DNA of 64,000 nucleotides from the NCBI RefSeq assembly GCF_024223415.1, contig NZ_CP100500.1; one strand, written 5' to 3'. Under the pieces are notes generated by a model that saw only the letters and a program-made list of their open reading frames with translations, was not told the origin of the DNA and made no database searches. The position numbers and the translations under genes are program-made. Origin of the DNA: Escherichia coli. GTDB taxonomy: Bacteria; Pseudomonadota; Gammaproteobacteria; Enterobacterales; Enterobacteriaceae. Shown here piece after piece: positions 4,001-15,781 of the stretch (position 1 is its first letter; each line of letters opens with the position of its first letter).

Positions 4001-4192
4001 GCTTGCACCTGGGTAAAGCGTGACTACCTGAATGGTCGGATAGTCCACTTCCGGCAGCGCCGAAACGGGCAGGGCGCGATAACCGATAATCCCGGCGAGT
4101 AAGATCGCCACCATCAGCAGCGTGGTGGCGACAGGACGCATAATAAACAGGCGAGACGGGCCGCCTGTGCTGCTCGGGGGTAACACCTGCAT
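1070..4192 (-). CDS. mdtB: RND multidrug efflux transporter MdtB
   Basis: 1040-aa [30 protein letters not shown]... with RND permease architecture; length matches MdtB. Confidence 0.95.
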
Positions 4193-5439
4193 CAGGAGCG
4201 TGCTCCTTTTTTCGCGTATTCGCGGCTGGTGGCTTTCTCTTCTGGAGTGGTGGCGCTCTGGGCTTCCACCACTTCCACTTTCGCCCCTTCGGTCAGGCGA
4301 TCAATGCCGTCTGTCACCACGCGATCGCCCGCAGAAATACCTGCACGGATCACCACTTTCTGACTGTCCTGAATGCCCGGCGTCACCAGATGTTTGCTGA
4401 CCTTGTTTTCACTATTCAGCACCCAGACAAAATGGCCTTCATTGCCCATTTGCAGGGCGGCTGATGGGATCACTACGGCGTTTTGTTCGGTGTCGACTAA
4501 CATGCGCGCGTTAACAAACTGATTGGGAAACAGCGCATCATCCTGATTATTAAAGCGTGCTTTCACTTTAATCGTACCGGTTGTGGCATCGATTTGGTTA
4601 TCGAGACTTAACAGCGTGCCTTCACTTAATTTCTTCGAGTTGGTGCGATCCCAGGCTTCTACCACCAGCGGTTTTCCGGCTTTCTGCGCCTGCACTACGG
4701 TAGCGATATCGCTTTCCGGCAGGGTAAAGACTAAATCGATAGGATGCGTCTGGGTGATCACCACGATCCCGGTGGTATCACCACTGGAGATTTGGTTACC
4801 AACATCAACCTGCTTGAGACCAACGCGACCATCGACTGGTGCGGTAATCCGGCTCCAGTCGAGTTGCAGCTGCGCGCTGGCAACGCTTGCTTCATCAGCC
4901 TTAATGGTGCCTTCGGTTTCACTGACCAGCGCCTGTTGGGCATCCAGCTCCTGGCGGGAAACGAGATTGGTTTTTGCCAGTTGTTGATAACGCGCCAGGT
5001 CACGGCGGGCGTTGGCAAGCGTGGCTTTATCTTTTGCCAGTTGGCCCTGGGCTTGTGCTAATGCAACTTTGAACTGGCTGGGGTCAATTTCTGCCAGTAA
5101 ATCGCCTGCTTTGACCTGCTGGCCTTCCTGGAAATGTAACGCTATCAGTTGGCCGTCCACGCGGCTGCGCACCGTAACGGTATTAGCGGCGGTAATGGTG
5201 CCAAGCCCGGTGAGGTAACGCGGAACTGCCTGTTCTACGGCGGTCGCCGCCTGAACCGGGGCTAATGGGCCGGAACGCATACCACGGCGACCACCCGCTG
5301 GCGATTGCTGCGCTTGTTTCGTCGCCCCTGGGGCTGCACTCCGGGAGTCATTGCGGCCTTGCCAGAACCAGAATGCGGCGATGGCGGCGATAACCACCAC
5401 GATTACGATTACCCAACGGGATTTATAACTGCCTTTCAT
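4192..5439 (-). CDS. mdtA: Efflux membrane fusion protein MdtA
   Basis: ORF track 4192..5586; start trimmed to the ATG giving [16 protein letters not shown]... (415 aa), HlyD-like periplasmic adaptor; stop overlaps the mdtB start. Confidence 0.9.
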
Positions 5440-5689: not shown

Positions 5690-5835
5690 GGAAGGGGCCT
5701 TAAATAAGGAAAGGGTCATGATGAAGCTACTCATCATCGTGGTGCTCTTAGTGATTAGCTACCCAGCATACTAAGACTACCAGGGCGGGGGAAACCCCGC
5801 TCTACCCTCACTCCTGAAAGTATGCCTTCACGATA
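5690..5835 (-). ncRNA. sib: Sib antisense sRNA (antitoxin) of ibs copy 1; boundaries approximate
   Basis: Established architecture of ibs/sib loci: a ~140-nt antisense RNA spans the toxin ORF. Ends not determinable from sequence alone. Confidence 0.4.
5718..5774 (+). CDS. ibs: Ibs-family type I toxin peptide, copy 1 (MMKLLIIVVLLVISYPAY)
   Basis: 18-codon hydrophobic ORF with the MMK start typical of Ibs toxins; preceded by aggaaagg SD-like sequence. Confidence 0.75.
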   Translation: MMKLLIIVVLLVISYPAY

Positions 5836-6017: not shown

Positions 6018-6163
6018 GGAAGGGGCCTTAAATAAGGAAAGGGTCATGATGAAGCTACTCATCATCGTGGTGCTCTTAGTCATAAGCTTCCCCGCTTACT
6101 AAGACTACCAGGGCGGGGGAAACCCCGCTCTACCCTCACTCCTGAAAGTATGCCTTCACGATA
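6018..6163 (-). ncRNA. sib: Sib antisense sRNA of ibs copy 2; boundaries approximate
   Basis: Same repeat unit as copy 1. Confidence 0.4.
6046..6102 (+). CDS. ibs: Ibs-family type I toxin peptide, copy 2 (MMKLLIIVVLLVISFPAY)
   Basis: 18-codon ORF; sequence as I recall IbsB. Confidence 0.8.
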   Translation: MMKLLIIVVLLVISFPAY

Positions 6164-6347: not shown

Positions 6348-6495
6348 AAGAGGGCTTTTAATAAGGAAAGGGTTATGATGAAGCACGTCATCATACTGGT
6401 GATACTCTTAGTGATTAGCTTCCAGGCTTACTAAGAACACCAGGGGGAGGGGGAAACCTCTCCCTAACCCTCACTCCTGAAATTATGTCACTCCG
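6348..6495 (-). ncRNA. sib: Sib antisense sRNA of ibs copy 3; boundaries approximate
   Basis: Same repeat unit as copy 1. Confidence 0.4.
6375..6434 (+). CDS. ibs: Ibs-family type I toxin peptide, copy 3 (MMKHVIILVILLVISFQAY)
   Basis: 19-codon ORF, IbsA-like. Confidence 0.8.
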   Translation: MMKHVIILVILLVISFQAY

Positions 6496-6654
6496 CCCTT
6501 AGTGTCAATCGACGGCTCTCCGTTCTTGCGAGGCGAATAGCAAAATTTTCTGCGCCGCCGGGCCTAATTCTGAAAGTTTCTTCGTTTGCTCTTATTTCAT
6601 TATTGCAGTCGGTATGATACCGGACCTCAATAATTCTCTAAGAAAGGATTTCTT

Positions 6655-7314
6655 ATGAGCGAACAAATCACGTTTGCCACCAGCGATTTTGCCAGTAACC
6701 CGGAACCACGTTGCCCCTGCATTTTGCTGCTGGATGTTTCTAGCTCGATGAGCGGCAGACCCATTAATGAACTTAACGCCGGATTGGTTACCTTTCGCGA
6801 TGAGCTGCTTGCCGATTCGCTGGCCTTAAAAAGAGTGGAACTCGGTATTGTGACGTTCGGCCCGGTGCATGTGGAACAACCCTTTACCAGCGCCGCTAAC
6901 TTTTTCCCGCCCATCCTGTTTGCCCAGGGGGATACGCCAATGGGGGCCGCCATTACCAAAGCCCTGGATATGGTTGAAGAGAGGAAACGTGAGTACCGCG
7001 CAAATGGTATTTCGTATTATCGCCCGTGGATTTTCCTGATCACCGATGGCGCTCCAACCGATGAGTGGCAGGCTGCCGCCAACAAAGTGTTTCAGGGGGA
7101 AGAAGATAAGAAATTTGCCTTCTTTTCCATCGCTGTTCAGGGGGCGGATATGAAGACGCTGGCACAAATCAGCGTTCGTCAGCCTTTGCCTCTGCAAGGA
7201 TTACAATTCCGTGAACTGTTTAGCTGGTTATCCAGTTCGCTGCGTTCGGTTTCCCGCTCCACGCCGGGAACGGAAGTTGTGCTGGAAGCGCCAAAAGGCT
7301 GGACGTCAGTGTGA
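6655..7314 (+). CDS. yegL: von Willebrand factor A (vWA) domain protein YegL
   Basis: 219 aa; [15 protein letters not shown] is a vWA MIDAS-like DxSxS motif; first gene of the triad. Confidence 0.9.
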
Positions 7315-8072
7315 GCTGGCGTCTGGTTTATGCATCCGCTGTTGGAACGTCGCACATTAGCGCTGATTTACCTTGTCAGGATGCCTGCCAGATGCAGGTT
7401 GCCTGGTTAAACGATCAGCAACCATTACTGGTGATGTTTCTTGCTGATGGTGCAGGCAGCGTCTCGCAGGGTGGCGAAGGCGCGATGCTCGCCGTCAATG
7501 AAGCGATGGCTTATATGTCGCAAAAAGTGCAGGGTGGGGAATTGGGGCTTAATGATATCCTCGCCACGGATATTGTGCTGACTATTCGTCAGCGACTTTT
7601 TGCCGAGGCGGAAGCCAAAGAATTAGCAGTTCGCGATTTTGCCTGCACGTTTCTGGGATTGATTTCATCGGCTAATGGCACCTTGATTATGCAGATTGGC
7701 GATGGCGGCGTGGTGGTGGATTTTGGTCACGGTCTGCAATTGCCGCTTACGCCGATGGTGGGTGAATATGACAATATGACGCACTTCATTACCGATGAAG
7801 ATGCCGTTTCCAGACTGGAAACTTTCACCAGCACTGAGCGTGTGCATAAAGTTGCAGCATTTACGGATGGTATCCAGCGACTGGCGTTAAATATGCTGGA
7901 TAATTCTCCTCATGTACCTTTCTTTACCCCGTTTTTCAATGGACTGGCGTCAGCAACGCAGGAACAACTCGATTTATTACCTGAATTGTTAAAGCAGTTT
8001 TTGTCCAGCCCGGCGGTAAACGAGCGTACGGATGATGATAAAACGTTGGCACTGGCGCTGTGGTTACCATGA
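7311..8072 (+). CDS. pphC: PP2C-family Ser/Thr protein phosphatase PphC (YegK)
   Basis: 253 aa; GTG start overlaps the yegL stop (GTGA); PP2C-like features ([15 protein letters not shown]). Confidence 0.88.
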
Positions 8073-10009
8073 AACCCACTTTATATACTGCTACTGGTGA
8101 GTGCGTTACGCCAGGCCGTGAACTGGGCAAAGGCGGTGAAGGCGCGGTTTATGATATCAATGAGTTTGTCGATAGCGTCGCCAAGATTTATCACACGCCG
8201 CCACCCGCCTTAAAACAGGACAAACTTGCCTTTATGGCTGCGACAGCTGACGCGCAATTGTTGAATTATGTCGCCTGGCCGCAGGCAACGCTTCACGGTG
8301 GACGAGGCGGAAAAGTTATCGGTTTTATGATGCCAAAAGTTTCTGGTAAAGAACCGATTCATATGATCTATAGCCCGGCACATCGTCGTCAACGTTACCC
8401 TCATTGTGCGTGGGATTTTCTACTCTATGTTGCGCGCAATATTGCTTCATCTTTTGCTACGGTTCACGAGCACGGGCACGTCGTGGGTGACGTAAACCAG
8501 AACAGTTTTATGGTAGGTCGCGACAGCAAAGTGGTACTGATTGATAGCGACTCCTTTCAGATTAACGCCAATGGCACACTGCATTTATGCGAAGTCGGCG
8601 TGTCGCATTTTACGCCGCCAGAGCTACAAACCTTGTCGTCATTTGTCGGCTTTGAACGCACAGAAAATCACGATAATTTTGGCCTTGCGTTGCTGATTTT
8701 TCACGTCTTGTTTGGTGGCCGGCATCCTTATTCTGGTGTGCCGCTTATCTCTGATGCGGGTAATGCGCTGGAGACGGATATTACCCATTTCCGTTATGCC
8801 TACGCGTCAGATAATCAGCGACGTGGTTTAAAACCGCCGCCACGATCGATTCCGCTATCGATGTTACCGAGTGATGTTGAAGCCATGTTTCAGCAGGCAT
8901 TCACGGAAAGTGGCGTGGCAACCGGGCGTCCGACGGCTAAAGCGTGGGTAGCGGCACTTGATTCTCTGCGCCAACAGTTAAAGAAATGTCCCGTTTCGGC
9001 AATGCATGTTTATCCCGCTCATTTGACCGACTGCCCGTGGTGTGCGCTGGATAATCAAGGCGTTATCTATTTTATTGATCTCGGCGAAGAGGTCATTACC
9101 ACCGGCGGGGATTTTGTGCTGGCAAAAGTCTGGGCGATGGTGATGGCGTCAGTAGCACCGCCAGCATTGCAACTGCCATTACCCGATCATTTCCAACCGA
9201 CTGGCAGGCCGCTTCCTTTAGGCCTGTTACGGCGCGAATACATCATTCTGCTTGAGATCGCACTGTCAGCATTATCGCTGCTGCTTTGCGGCCTTCAGGC
9301 AGAACCGCGTTATATTATTTTGGTTCCTGTGCTGGCGGCTATCTGGATTATTGGCAGTCTGACAAGCAAAGCGTACAAAGCAGAAGTTCAGCAACGCCGT
9401 GAGGCATTTAATCGTGCGAAAATGGACTATGACCATTTAGTCCGCCAGATCCAGCAGGTAGGCGGCCTGGAAGGTTTTATCGCCAAACGGACGATGCTCG
9501 AAAAAATGAAGGACGAAATTCTCGGGTTACCGGAAGAAGAGAAACGCGCTCTGGCAGCACTTCATGACACTGCAAGGGAACGGCAGAAGCAGAAGTTTCT
9601 GGAGGGATTTTTTATTGATGTTGCCTCTATTCCCGGCGTTGGCCCTGCGCGTAAAGCGGCGTTACGGTCTTTTGGTATTGAAACAGCCGCAGATGTTACC
9701 CGTCGTGGCGTTAAGCAAGTGAAAGGGTTTGGCGACCATCTGACCCAGGCGGTTATCGACTGGAAAGCGAGCTGTGAACGCCGTTTTGTGTTCAGGCCGA
9801 ATGAAGCGATAACGCCAGCAGACAGACAAGCGGTAATGGCGAAAATGACCGCCAAACGACATCGGCTGGAATCGACGTTGACTGTCGGCGCGACAGAGTT
9901 GCAGCGATTCCGCCTTCATGCTCCAGCACGGACCATGCCGTTGATGGAACCTTTACGTCAGGCGGCAGAAAAACTGGCTCAGGCGCAGGCAGATTTAAGC
10001 CGCTGCTGA
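8069..10009 (+). CDS. yegI: Ser/Thr protein kinase-like membrane protein YegI
   Basis: ORF track starts at GTG 8060; the ATG at 8069 overlaps the pphC stop (ATGA). Kinase-like N-terminal region, hydrophobic segment near residues 390-430, C-terminal helix-hairpin-helix motif (IPGVGPARKAALRSFGI). Confidence 0.85.
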   Translation: MKPTLYTATGECVTPGRELGKGGEGAVYDINEFVDSVAKIYHTPPPALKQDKLAFMAATADAQLLNYVAWPQATLHGGRGGKVIGFMMPKVSGKEPIHMIYSPAHRRQRYPHCAWDFLLYVARNIASSFATVHEHGHVVGDVNQNSFMVGRDSKVVLIDSDSFQINANGTLHLCEVGVSHFTPPELQTLSSFVGFERTENHDNFGLALLIFHVLFGGRHPYSGVPLISDAGNALETDITHFRYAYASDNQRRGLKPPPRSIPLSMLPSDVEAMFQQAFTESGVATGRPTAKAWVAALDSLRQQLKKCPVSAMHVYPAHLTDCPWCALDNQGVIYFIDLGEEVITTGGDFVLAKVWAMVMASVAPPALQLPLPDHFQPTGRPLPLGLLRREYIILLEIALSALSLLLCGLQAEPRYIILVPVLAAIWIIGSLTSKAYKAEVQQRREAFNRAKMDYDHLVRQIQQVGGLEGFIAKRTMLEKMKDEILGLPEEEKRALAALHDTARERQKQKFLEGFFIDVASIPGVGPARKAALRSFGIETAADVTRRGVKQVKGFGDHLTQAVIDWKASCERRFVFRPNEAITPADRQAVMAKMTAKRHRLESTLTVGATELQRFRLHAPARTMPLMEPLRQAAEKLAQAQADLSRC

Positions 10010-10020
10010 GCCATTTTCTT

Positions 10021-11373
10021 TTAACGAAACACCACTTCCGCCCAGCGTGCCAGCCCGGCGGTGACGGAGCCAAAGTCATCGCCGCCTGCAATCGGAATTC
10101 CCGGCAACTGTTCTGCCAGCGCTTTTTTAATCAGCGGCGAACGGGCGCTACCGCCGGTCAGGTAGATAACGTCCGGTTTTTCCTGGGCGTTATCCAGGGC
10201 CAGTTGCACCTGTTCCAGAATCCGCGCCAGTGGCTGGCTGAGGGCGCTTTCCAGCCCTTGCTGGCTAATCAGCGTAGCCAGTTCATCGCTGATAAACGGC
10301 AGTGAGGCGCGGGTTTCCGCTACGCTTGAAAGAGCAATTTTGCACTCTTCTGCGCTACGCACCAGGCGATAGCTTAAACGCTGACGCCAGACTTTCTGTA
10401 GCAGGGCCACTTTTTCCGGTTCGCGGGCATCGCGTACCAGATCGTTAAGCAGACGACCGTTGGCACTACTGTAGAAATCACTCTGCGCAGGTACGTCGTT
10501 GATGGCAACCGCATTCCACCACGGCAGAATCGGCAGGGCGATGCCTTTTTCGGTTTCGCCACCCATGCCCAGTAACGGCATCAGGTTTTTAAACGCCAGT
10601 GCGATGTCCAGATCGTTACCGCCAATACGGCAACCACTGTGACCCAGCAGGCTGGCTTCACGATCGAGACGCGAACGCCACTGCGGCCCCATCAGCAGCA
10701 ATGAACAGTCAGTCGTACCACCGCCGATATCCACCACCAGCACCCGTTTTTCTTCCTGCAAGGTGGCTTCGTAATCCAGCCCAGCCGCGACCGGCTCGTA
10801 CTGGAATACCACGTCCCTGAATCCGGCACGCTTCGCCGCGCGTTCCAGAATCCCTTGCGCCTGGGCGTTTGCTTCATCGCCGCCCAGCCCCTGGAAGTTG
10901 ATCGGGCGACCAATCACCGCCTGAGTAATCGCTTCTGGCAGCTGCGCCTGCGCCTGCTGGCGAATGTGCAACATCATTGCGCAGACCAGATCCTCAAACA
11001 GCGCTACCTGCTGCGGTTTTAAGCCGCTGGCACCGAGGAACGATTTTGGTGATTTCACAAACCACACTTCTTCTGGATCATCAATGTACTGTGCCAGTGA
11101 GGAAAGACCGAACTGCACGCTTTTCGCCGTAACATCGATATCTTCTTCGCGGTTATAACGAATCGCCCGACGTAACAGCGCCTGCGTTTCATCGTCGTCT
11201 GCCGGAACATCATGATGGCGGTACAGCCATTCACTTACTGCTTCACGCGTTGGCGCGCAAAGCATTGAAGGCAGCAGCGTGCTGTCGTTTTCCATTTTCA
11301 GTAATTGCGGTTTACCGTCACGCATGACCGCCACTGAACAGTTTGCTGTACCGTAATCAAAACCAATAAACAC
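10021..11373 (-). CDS. yegD: Hsp70/DnaK-like chaperone homolog YegD
   Basis: 450 aa; MFIGFDYGTANCSVA... actin/Hsp70 ATPase fold signatures (DIGGGTTD). Confidence 0.9.
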   Translation of the reverse strand: MFIGFDYGTANCSVAVMRDGKPQLLKMENDSTLLPSMLCAPTREAVSEWLYRHHDVPADDDETQALLRRAIRYNREEDIDVTAKSVQFGLSSLAQYIDDPEEVWFVKSPKSFLGASGLKPQQVALFEDLVCAMMLHIRQQAQAQLPEAITQAVIGRPINFQGLGGDEANAQAQGILERAAKRAGFRDVVFQYEPVAAGLDYEATLQEEKRVLVVDIGGGTTDCSLLLMGPQWRSRLDREASLLGHSGCRIGGNDLDIALAFKNLMPLLGMGGETEKGIALPILPWWNAVAINDVPAQSDFYSSANGRLLNDLVRDAREPEKVALLQKVWRQRLSYRLVRSAEECKIALSSVAETRASLPFISDELATLISQQGLESALSQPLARILEQVQLALDNAQEKPDVIYLTGGSARSPLIKKALAEQLPGIPIAGGDDFGSVTAGLARWAEVVFR

Positions 11374-12463: not shown

Positions 12464-15400
12464 TCAGTTAATCGCGAAATAACTACTATTCACCAGCAAA
12501 TCCAGCGGTTGGGCATCGGCAATCACCTCACCATAAATCAGATCGACGCCGATGCCAGAAAGCGTATCCATCACTAAGGGTAAAACGACTGGCCCGGCGA
12601 TGGTTTTCATCCCGAGTCGCTGAGCGTGCCCCTGAATAATCGTAATCAGCATCTCATCCATCAAATTACCCTGCACGTTGGCGCATAACTCACCATCAAG
12701 TAGCAGGTAATCTGCCATATTCGCTTTCAGCGAGTTGAAGATTTGCAGATCGCGGCCCACCTGGCTGAGCACTATCCGACATCCCGCCAGCCGCAGTTTT
12801 TGCACGCTTTCTGCGTGATCTAAAATCGCTTCAGCCGGAATAATCAGATGTAATAACCGTGGTGGTAGAGGGCTATTTTCCAGCTGCTCAAGCAGATCAT
12901 TCACCAGCGTGGCGCTACTCAAACCGGCAACGGAAAGGGGGAGGGAGATGCTTATGCCTTTACTGGCAACCGCTTTTGCGGCCTGCTGGAAAAATTCGTG
13001 GAATACCCGGCGGTCAAGAGCATGGCTAAGCGCCGGATCGCTGAAGCTACGACGAAATGTTTGTTCATCAATAATCTCGCCTTCGCAACTCCAGAGCTTA
13101 AGTGAAATCAGCCACAAATTACGCGCTTCCGGGATCCGTGGCGAAGCGACACCGTGGGCGAGCATCATCAACTGATTCTCTTTAATCATCCGCCACTGTT
13201 CATCAAGCGACATCGCCGCCCGTTCGCTATGTGCGGCAGCTTGCTGCGGTTCGTAAACCGTCACCCGGCCCCGGCCACCATTTTTGGAGGCATAACAGGC
13301 GATATCAGCCTGCGACATCACTTCTGCCGCCTGATGATTGTTGTCATCAATCAAGGTAATCCCGGCACTGGCACCTACCCGATGCACACGGCCTTCCCAT
13401 ATAAAGTGATAGTCATTCACGGCACTGATAATGCGTGTAGCGATAAAACGCGCGCTTTCAACATTACAGTCTGGTAGCAGCAGACCAAATTCATCCCCAC
13501 CGAGTCGCGCCAGCACGTCGCTGGAACGCAGCATACTCAGCATTAACGACGCCAGTTCGCGCAGCAAAGCGTCACCCGCCGCATGCCCGGCGCTGTCATT
13601 CACCGCTTTAAAGCGATCAAGATCGATAAACACCAGGGCATGTCGCTGATGTGTACTGTTTACCGTTTGCAGCAGGATACGCAGTTGTTTCTCAAAACTG
13701 GCGCGGTTGGCGAGATGCGTCAGTGCATCATGGGAGGCGCTGTAGCTCAGCTGGCGCAGCATTTTGCGTGATTCGGTAACGTCCTGAATCACCAGAACCG
13801 AACCAATATTGCTGCCGTCCAGAGTACTTAACGGCGTAATACAGTAATGCACGTCGTAACTGCCGCCGCTCCGACAGTGCAACACCACATCTTGCTCGAT
13901 CGCGGAACGTGAGGTGTCGGCACTGTAAATGTTCTCCATTAATGGTCCGTTGTCGCCAAAAGTAATATGCAACACCGTCAGGAGCGGAACACCTAACGCT
14001 TCTTCCTGCGTCCAGCCGCTCATCTTCTCCGCCACTGGATTCATAAAGGTAATTTTCATCGCCATATCAATACAGACCACGGCTTCACCGATGGAATCAA
14101 GCGTAATGTGCAGGCGCTCTTTTTCCTGAAACAATGCCTCGTTAAGCTGTTTAACCTCAGTCATATCCATATTAATGCCGAGCAGGCGTTCGACTTCGCC
14201 TTCTTTATTCAGTACCCGGTTGGCGAGGGCGCGGATATGGCGGATGCCATCTTTCACGGCAATGCGAAATTCCAGCTTAAAGGGCGAGCGTGATTGCAAC
14301 GAATCACGAATCACTTTTTCGGCGTGTTGGCGATCTTCCGGCAATACACACTCGTACCACACCTGCCAGTTCGGTTTGATATGCGGAGGAATTTCATACA
14401 GCTCGAACATCCGCTTATCCCAGCTAAAAATATTCGGCTTCAACTCCCACTCCCAGATGCCAATCCCGCCCGCTTCGTTAGCCAGCGTGATGCGCTCCAT
14501 CAGTTGCTGATTGACCTGTTCGGTGCGTTTTAGCTCGTTAATGTCTTCAATCTGAGCGATAAAATAGAGCGGCGTGCCATCCGTGTGGCGCACCAGTGAG
14601 ACGGCAAGCAACGCCCAGACAACATCGCCATTGCGGTTGTAGTAGCGTTTTTCCATTGAATAGGTGTTTATTTCACCGCTTATCAGCTTTTCAACCTGTT
14701 GGAGATCTTTATTGAGATCCTCCGGCCAGGTCAGTTGCTGAAAGGTGAGTCCGCGCAGCTCTTCCTGACTGTACCCGAGAAACTGGCAGAGCGCTTTGTT
14801 GGTTTGCAGCCATTGTCCCTCGGTGCCCACTAACGCCATACCGATAGCGGAATATTCCATCGCGTTCCGAAAGTGGGTTTCGCTTTCGGAAATGTGTTTG
14901 CGTTCCGCACGAAAGGCATACATCACCATGGTCATGATGTTGGCGGGCAGCAGGATCAGCAAAAACGGTAGCCACGGCATATGGCTCATCAGGTACGTAC
15001 GCGGCGTAGCAAGCAGGGAGGGATCCGCGGCCATCATCAGCGACACCATCATCACCGTGGTAAGGAAGATCAAAAAGGCTTCCATTCGTGGCAGACGCAC
15101 GGCGCTCCACATCAACAGCACAATAATGAAAGTAAAAGGCCACGGCAGATACAGCATCGAAAGCCAGCTTAACGTCAGTGTGATGGCTAACGTGAGCAGC
15201 GACTCAAAAAGCAACCGTGGGTTGCGATGGCGCAGCAGATAGTGTGGTTTAAATAACAATCCCAGCGGCACCAGTGCCAGAGCGCCGATGGATTCTGACA
15301 GTACCCATATCAAAAATGCCCTGAGAGGATCGTCTCCGGGCGTCAGCAGGACAACCAGAACACCCCCCAACAGAGGCGGAACAATGGCGCTGCCGAGTGC

Positions 15401-15781
15401 CAGACGCAGCCAGTCAGCCAGATTTTGCAAGGGGTTATACCACGGCAGCAATTTACGTAGCAGCACTGCCCCGACCACGGCTTCAACAATATTGATGGTC
15501 GTCCAGGTCATGTTCAGCGAGCTGGTGGAAAAAAGCAGGATGGATGCGGCGATATTTCCCAGCGAACAGCTCAGCGCAATTCCCGGCCACATGCGCCCGG
15601 CATGGCGATAAAACGCCACCATCATGATGGACGTCGGGAACCACAGTGGGGCGAGTTGGGTGCCAAACTGCGAAAGCTCAAGCGAGAAAAGGGTAAAGAT
15701 AAACGAGACTAAACCTAAACTGACCAGGTGAAGCAGCGGGTGGGGCAGGGCAATTAATACATGCTGTGATTGTTTGCTCAT
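12464..15781 (-). CDS. dgcE: Membrane-anchored diguanylate cyclase/phosphodiesterase DgcE (YegE; MASE1-PAS-GGDEF-EAL)
   Basis: 1105 aa; N-terminal multi-TM region, PAS-like segments, GGDEF motif (ARLGGDEFGLLL) and a C-terminal EAL-like domain. Confidence 0.92.
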   Translation of the reverse strand: MSKQSQHVLIALPHPLLHLVSLGLVSFIFTLFSLELSQFGTQLAPLWFPTSIMMVAFYRHAGRMWPGIALSCSLGNIAASILLFSTSSLNMTWTTINIVEAVVGAVLLRKLLPWYNPLQNLADWLRLALGSAIVPPLLGGVLVVLLTPGDDPLRAFLIWVLSESIGALALVPLGLLFKPHYLLRHRNPRLLFESLLTLAITLTLSWLSMLYLPWPFTFIIVLLMWSAVRLPRMEAFLIFLTTVMMVSLMMAADPSLLATPRTYLMSHMPWLPFLLILLPANIMTMVMYAFRAERKHISESETHFRNAMEYSAIGMALVGTEGQWLQTNKALCQFLGYSQEELRGLTFQQLTWPEDLNKDLQQVEKLISGEINTYSMEKRYYNRNGDVVWALLAVSLVRHTDGTPLYFIAQIEDINELKRTEQVNQQLMERITLANEAGGIGIWEWELKPNIFSWDKRMFELYEIPPHIKPNWQVWYECVLPEDRQHAEKVIRDSLQSRSPFKLEFRIAVKDGIRHIRALANRVLNKEGEVERLLGINMDMTEVKQLNEALFQEKERLHITLDSIGEAVVCIDMAMKITFMNPVAEKMSGWTQEEALGVPLLTVLHITFGDNGPLMENIYSADTSRSAIEQDVVLHCRSGGSYDVHYCITPLSTLDGSNIGSVLVIQDVTESRKMLRQLSYSASHDALTHLANRASFEKQLRILLQTVNSTHQRHALVFIDLDRFKAVNDSAGHAAGDALLRELASLMLSMLRSSDVLARLGGDEFGLLLPDCNVESARFIATRIISAVNDYHFIWEGRVHRVGASAGITLIDDNNHQAAEVMSQADIACYASKNGGRGRVTVYEPQQAAAHSERAAMSLDEQWRMIKENQLMMLAHGVASPRIPEARNLWLISLKLWSCEGEIIDEQTFRRSFSDPALSHALDRRVFHEFFQQAAKAVASKGISISLPLSVAGLSSATLVNDLLEQLENSPLPPRLLHLIIPAEAILDHAESVQKLRLAGCRIVLSQVGRDLQIFNSLKANMADYLLLDGELCANVQGNLMDEMLITIIQGHAQRLGMKTIAGPVVLPLVMDTLSGIGVDLIYGEVIADAQPLDLLVNSSYFAIN

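Follow-up and report, generated by a model that had tools for sequence, protein, structure and literature searches.

Did Escherichia coli strains in which pphC (yegK) runs directly into yegI lose the gene yegJ, which separates the two in K-12, or did K-12 acquire it? The question was raised by a stretch of 64,000 nucleotides of the E. coli chromosome (NZ_CP100500.1; hereafter the window). A first-pass annotation, made from its letters alone, noticed that pphC and yegI overlap and leave no room for a separate gene between them. It placed, with low confidence, a small divergent yegJ in K-12, and on that premise took this strain to lack it and to carry yegL, pphC and yegI as a compact operon.

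The difference between the two junctions is already known and published. In REL606 and O157:H7, yegI overlaps pphC by four nucleotides (ATGA), and in K strains yegJ lies between them (Rajagopalan and Dworkin, 10.1101/819920); the same authors present the same locus map in 10.1101/303594, and a 2026 RNA Biology paper repeats the observation (PMC13232886). Here we add the probable direction of the change, the frequencies of the two forms, the apparently chimeric start of yegI in K-12, and the shared borders of the block that carries yegJ.

Organization of the triad in the window

The triad and its neighbours are arranged as follows.

4192-5439, minus strand: mdtA, left-hand boundary of the yegD-mdtA interval (ORF; annotation of strain 181.1, locus positions 93-1340, mapped)
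6655-7314, plus strand: yegL, first gene of the triad, a vWA protein of 219 aa (ORF; Pfam VWA, E=4e-9; 181.1 annotation)
7311-7314, plus strand: GTGA, the pphC start (GTG) over the yegL stop (TGA) (read from the sequence)
7311-8072, plus strand: pphC (yegK), a PP2C-type Ser/Thr phosphatase of 253 aa (Pfam PP2C_2, E=2.8e-50; annotation)
8064-8113, plus strand: junction segment of 50 bp (borders from BLAST and alignment)
8069-8072, plus strand: ATGA, the yegI start (ATG) over the pphC stop (TGA) (sequence; annotation limits)
8069-10009, plus strand: yegI, a Ser/Thr kinase of 646 aa (ORF; annotation)
10021-11373, minus strand: yegD (HSP70 family), convergent right-hand neighbour, with alkA next (ORF; annotation)

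Open reading frames, Pfam matches, a tblastn map and the annotation agree that the vWA gene comes first, the PP2C gene second and the kinase gene third, all on the same strand. The three are flanked on the left by mdtA and three Ibs toxin genes, and on the right by yegD, which is convergent, and then alkA. The pphC frame runs from GTG at 7311 to TGA at 8070-8072 and the yegI frame from ATG at 8069 to TGA at 10007-10009, and sequence and frames together confirm the ATGA overlap at 8069-8072. The first-pass annotation was therefore right that no separate gene lies between the two, as the frames share four bases; tblastn with YegJ gave no match, and no remnant of the K-12 block was found, anywhere in the 64-kb window. 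The NCBI gene limits in E. coli 181.1 (turkey, Canada), which is 100% identical over 6600-10100 and 100.0% (rounded) identical over positions 1-25000, are exactly those read in the window for the triad.

An overlap of this kind is a common operon feature and no statistical oddity: a 4-base stop/start overlap recurs in about 20 of the ~75 homologous operons examined, and that between yegL and pphC is also present in the K-12 annotation. That faulty assembly or annotation of this one genome created the junction is practically inconceivable. The same 170-bp junction, covered to at least 80%, occurs in 3471 complete genomes, which refutes such a reading, and the overlap has been reported for REL606 and O157:H7 (10.1101/819920). 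The operon of these two strains has the same genes, gene order, ATGA overlap and position between mdtA and yegD as that of the window, likewise without yegJ, and differs from it only in alleles (O157 is 96.2% identical over 6600-10100).

Two further observations concern the surroundings of the triad. Three tandem Ibs type I toxin genes lie on the plus strand between mdtA and yegL, at 5718-5774, 6046-6102 and 6375-6434 (products MMKLLIIVVLLVISYPAY, MMKLLIIVVLLVISFPAY and MMKHVIILVILLVISFQAY), and their copy number varies by strain, with two in K-12 (ibsA and ibsB), two in LS45, four in PKF4 and three in the window. A few bases may distinguish the window from 181.1, since across 25 kb the bit score falls slightly short of a perfect match; dgcE (12464-15781, minus strand) is an intact ORF of 1105 aa in the window and a pseudogene with an internal stop at the same coordinates in the 181.1 record.

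The K-12 junction

This yegJ is indeed present in K-12, where b2071 of MG1655 separates pphC from yegI and encodes 153 aa on the opposite strand. MG1655 (b2073-b2070) has the same flanking genes as the window, and the two do not align collinearly across the junction, as they would have had to for the first-pass annotation to be refuted: homology reaches window position 8063 and restarts at 8114, and the 50 bp between these points (8064-8113) stand against 785 bp in K-12. The two layouts are related by replacement of one segment with another and not by a clean insertion. In the window, the 50 bp encode the end of pphC (its last two codons and stop) and the first 15 codons of yegI, and the K-12 block brings its own version of both ends. 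PphC terminates in WAE in K-12, from two codons and a stop supplied by the block, and in WLP in the window; K-12 YegI (648 aa) begins with MKTNIKVFTSTGELTTL and that of the window (646 aa) with a different 15-residue start. Between these ends, the block contains a hairpin, yegJ in reverse orientation and a spacer of ~200 bp. Its GC content is 37%, against 51% for the operon, and the hairpin, just 3' of the pphC stop, has a folding energy of -19 (centroid) to -24 kcal/mol (z = -2.7).

The spacer between yegI and yegJ appears to give the K-12 yegI a promoter region of its own. RNA polymerase holoenzyme binds it in genomic SELEX, predicted promoters face both ways, and the spacer is also a recorded H-NS site (PMC3946193). 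In a consensus scan, the block held 8 promoter-like sites against a shuffle mean of 2.8, and no promoter-like site on the plus strand was found inside the operon of the window.

One might ask whether yegJ is a gene at all, or a spurious ORF without coding content in an intergenic insertion of K-12. Almost no yegJ reads are found in K-12 RNA-seq (PMC13232886), and the adjacent spacer is bound by H-NS (PMC3946193). However, the protein matches Pfam DUF2314 (E=2e-25) and has full-length homologues of 47-76% identity in many bacteria, and its ORF has remained uninterrupted in block haplotypes with up to 7% divergence. The protein also has effects when expressed: YegJ, although barely expressed from its own gene, harms the envelope when overproduced (PMC13232886). 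A non-coding yegJ is accordingly hardly credible.

Decayed forms of the K-12-type locus were also seen. In E. coli 510016 (NZ_CP025851.1, locus L004, 2450-4850), one IS1 breaks pphC and a second substitutes for yegJ and the start of yegI, and in strain EM18-18-42 an IS1 is inserted within yegJ.

Frequency of the two junctions in E. coli

Among 5426 complete E. coli genomes, the triad is present in 5416. The compact junction, called when at least 80% of a 170-bp junction probe was covered, was found in 3471 (64%) and the yegJ block in 1934 (about 36%). With 5405 genomes in the two classes together, hardly any genome lacks both junctions; a few carry IS1-disrupted derivatives. The yegJ block occurs in strains from cattle, poultry, pigs, wild animals and humans, and was never located on a plasmid in these 5426 genomes. 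The statement that yegJ is confined to K strains (PMC13232886) is too narrow, since 1934 complete genomes from many hosts carry the block. An unusual case is E. coli 19-5 (NZ_CP047010.1), from which nearly the whole triad is absent; only 8% of window positions 6600-10100 was matched, beside yegD.

Direction of the change

A scan with PphC, limited to one genome per species, recovered 79 loci. The order vWA-PP2C-kinase is kept in nearly all of about 75 species, with the kinase start -34 to +92 bases from the phosphatase stop, and no YegJ homologue was found within these loci. A compact ATGA or GTGA junction is present in Escherichia whittamii, Escherichia sp. MOD1-EC7003, Escherichia sp. E1V33 and the divergent E. 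coli E69, and the scan also covered Klebsiella spallanzanii and members of many phyla. The genome scan had no match in E. albertii or E. fergusonii, and these two carry no weight in the argument on polarity. Because every recovered non-coli Escherichia and ~70 other species are compact and devoid of yegJ, the comparison indicates that the compact form is ancestral and the K-12 layout derived. The first-pass annotation was thus correct that the strain lacks yegJ, but the absence should not be taken for a loss, since the compact form is both the majority state and that of the outgroups.

The opposite polarity, in which the yegJ layout is ancestral in E. coli and the lineage of the window deleted yegJ and formed the ATGA overlap secondarily, has some observations in its favor. 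The block must be old, as its copies differ by 4-7% between strains, like their flanks. In the flanks of the junction, the window is 99.5-100% identical to A39, CE0026f and LY180, which are yegJ-positive, and the differences bunch at 7610-8118, by the junction, as would suit a recombination patch that removed yegJ. However, the 50 bp at 8064-8113 are absent from the K-12 block, and a plain deletion cannot yield them; a simple deletion of yegJ is rejected on this ground. Seven compact E. coli, as well as Escherichia sp. MOD1-EC7003, have exactly these 50 bp. With the outgroups compact as well, the most that could have happened in this lineage is a return to the ancestral junction through recombination with a compact strain, a variant of the compact-ancestor account and no de novo loss. 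We therefore regard an ancestral yegJ layout as very unlikely and retain the compact form as the probable ancestor.

Recombination at the locus

A comparison of 16 haplotypes indicates that the locus is a recombination mosaic in which either junction form may sit on the same background, because near-identical flanks carry both junction states. The window and STEC2018-607, both compact, have the flank identities of 99.5-100% to yegJ-positive A39, CE0026f and LY180 given above, and it is in the comparison with A39 that the differences are concentrated in 7610-8118, beside the junction. Between K-12 and the window, identity is 94.8% in yegL and only 93.6% in pphC, against 98-99% in yegI past the junction (98.0% over the first 600 bp and 98.7% over the rest). 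The whole triad diverges by 3-7% across E. coli strains. Homologous recombination between strains would put either form onto near-identical flanks, and for the lineage of the window the SNP patterns by the junction fit gain and loss by recombination alike.

One allele stands apart from this general level of divergence. The pphC of E69 (CP089930.1, locus L028, 2980-3741, corresponding to window 7311-8072) has only 80-82% DNA identity to that of other E. coli, and the yegL and yegI of the same strain are 92-94% identical to theirs. The much greater diversity of pphC compared with yegL and yegI could be due to import of foreign alleles or to diversifying selection.

Comparison with TerY-P systems

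The gathering of vWA, PP2C and kinase domains in one operon is an architecture that the triad of the window has in common with the TerY-P triad, in which a TerY-like vWA protein and a PP2C phosphatase are encoded alongside a Ser/Thr kinase that bears a zinc ribbon (Anantharaman et al. 2012, as cited in PMC11090510). TerY-P-like defence modules, whose kinase has an OB fold, are credited with protection against phages (Gao et al. 2020, as cited in the same article). In YegI, a Cys-x5-His-x8-Cys-Pro-Trp-Cys motif follows directly after the kinase domain (residues 307-325, window 8987-9043). C307, C322 and C325 are invariant in 46 YegI homologues from many phyla and H313 is conserved throughout the displayed alignment, which suggests a zinc-binding module, consistent with a zinc ribbon.

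The resemblance has its limits. With PADLOC (PADLOC-DB 2.0), the TerY model matched YegL at E=0.013 and 13 bits, PphC had no match, and YegI gave only weak matches to MkoA and PD-T4-6; NCBIfam provided no informative family names. Membership of the PADLOC TerY-P defence system is rejected, as there is no significant TerY-P match. Where the kinase of the TerY-P defence modules has an OB fold, YegI is described as having two membrane segments (10.1101/819920) and shows, by a weak match to Pfam HHH_5 at residues 515-550, a putative helix-hairpin-helix region; Pfam, the sole domain scan of YegI, lists no OB-fold family. Unlike TerY-P, the E. coli triad has no adjoining tellurite-resistance or restriction genes. 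The triad is TerY-P-like in architecture and not a member of the defence system as PADLOC defines it; we know of no defence phenotype for it.

Proposed expression of the two forms

Positions 6655-10009 of the window very probably represent the undisrupted, ancestral operon, and K-12 a rearranged form in which the kinase has been uncoupled from the phosphatase. Translation can be coupled at overlapping stop and start codons. In the compact form, a single transcript would run from upstream of yegL through yegL-pphC-yegI, as suggested by the two 4-base overlaps and the lack of a plus-strand promoter-like site within the operon, and the overlaps suggest that ribosomes ending pphC would restart at the overlapping ATG of yegI (termination-reinitiation coupling). 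We infer from these sequence features that the genes are both co-transcribed and translationally coupled, so that the YegI kinase would be made together with the phosphatase that acts on it. Published work describes YegI as an autophosphorylating membrane Ser/Thr kinase with two membrane segments (10.1101/819920) and PphC, whose biochemistry has been characterized, as able to dephosphorylate YegI (10.1101/303594). Robust expression of the locus went undetected in these studies (10.1101/303594, 10.1101/819920).

In the ~36% of E. coli that include K-12, the exchange of the 50-bp junction for the AT-rich block of 785 bp would alter this arrangement. Because RNA polymerase and H-NS are found in the spacer and promoter-like sites are in excess in the block, the most probable effect of the block is that yegI is cut off from the yegL-pphC transcript and comes under a silenced promoter of its own. 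K-12, the usual strain for work on YegI, PphC and YegJ, very probably has a rearranged minority operon and a YegI with a chimeric N-terminus, and regulatory conclusions drawn from it may not carry over to the 64% of strains with the compact form.

Origin of the yegJ block

The blocks of K-12, CE0026f, A39, LY180, PKF4 and LS45 have the same borders and gene lengths; the borders recur in five diverged haplotypes. Divergence among these six yegJ-positive strains is 4-7% within the block, about equal to that of the flanking genes. Identical borders on blocks that differ to this extent are consistent with one old event, after which the copies diverged. Neither a target-site duplication nor terminal repeats could be seen at either end of the block.

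The start of yegI in K-12 is informative about what was brought in. Its first 17 codons match the N-terminal pattern of the kinase family (a hydrophobic residue, Y/F/V, T, S/A, any residue and G, later I/L, then GRELGKGGEG). By a hand count over the last 11 of these 17 codons, its DNA is only ~55% identical to that of compact yegI, with mostly third-position differences, yet the sequence directly downstream is 98% identical. The break is too sharp for gradual divergence and points to a 5' segment that came from a distant homologue of the triad kinase.

Searches based on YegJ homologues and on the YegI N-terminus did not find a donor of the block. A protein search with the N-terminal 150 residues of K-12 YegI returned short fragments only, with no donor-like sequence, and the N-terminal segment showed no specific closeness to any of 24 sampled species. 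A mobile-element origin was also considered and rejected: the phage collection contained no YegJ, and the close matches in the plasmid collection were E. coli records only, two of them of chromosome size (4.9 Mb) but filed as plasmids and one a partial match in a 365-kb record.

It is conceivable, though rather unlikely in our estimation, that the yegJ block is an old, single, chimeric import that selection, rather than drift plus recombination, has kept beside the compact form as a long-lived polymorphism, at 36% against 64%, and that it acts as a genetic switch. If so, the compact state would couple kinase and phosphatase, and the split state would combine an H-NS-silenced kinase promoter with a membrane-active DUF2314 protein. 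The foreign 5' end of yegI would in that case imply an unsampled donor in which yegJ lies beside a triad kinase.

The closest YegJ outside E. coli, at 75-76% identity, are those of Superficieibacter electus and a related metagenome genome. In both (locus L084, 4453-12462, and locus L085, 4375-8273, respectively), yegJ lies between yegD and mdtA in the K-12 orientation, the triad is absent, and DNA similarity to E. coli yegJ ends at the limits of the coding sequence. On that same rather unlikely reading, the presence of these closest relatives in the same interval hints that yegJ may have occupied the yegD-mdtA interval before the triad did. Three more distant YegJ homologues have unrelated neighbours. 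The S. electus interval also contains an array of genes matching immunity/effector-type Pfam families (SUKH, Tli3, Tle3_C and Imm52), and the yegD-mdtA interval looks like a hotspot for accessory genes.
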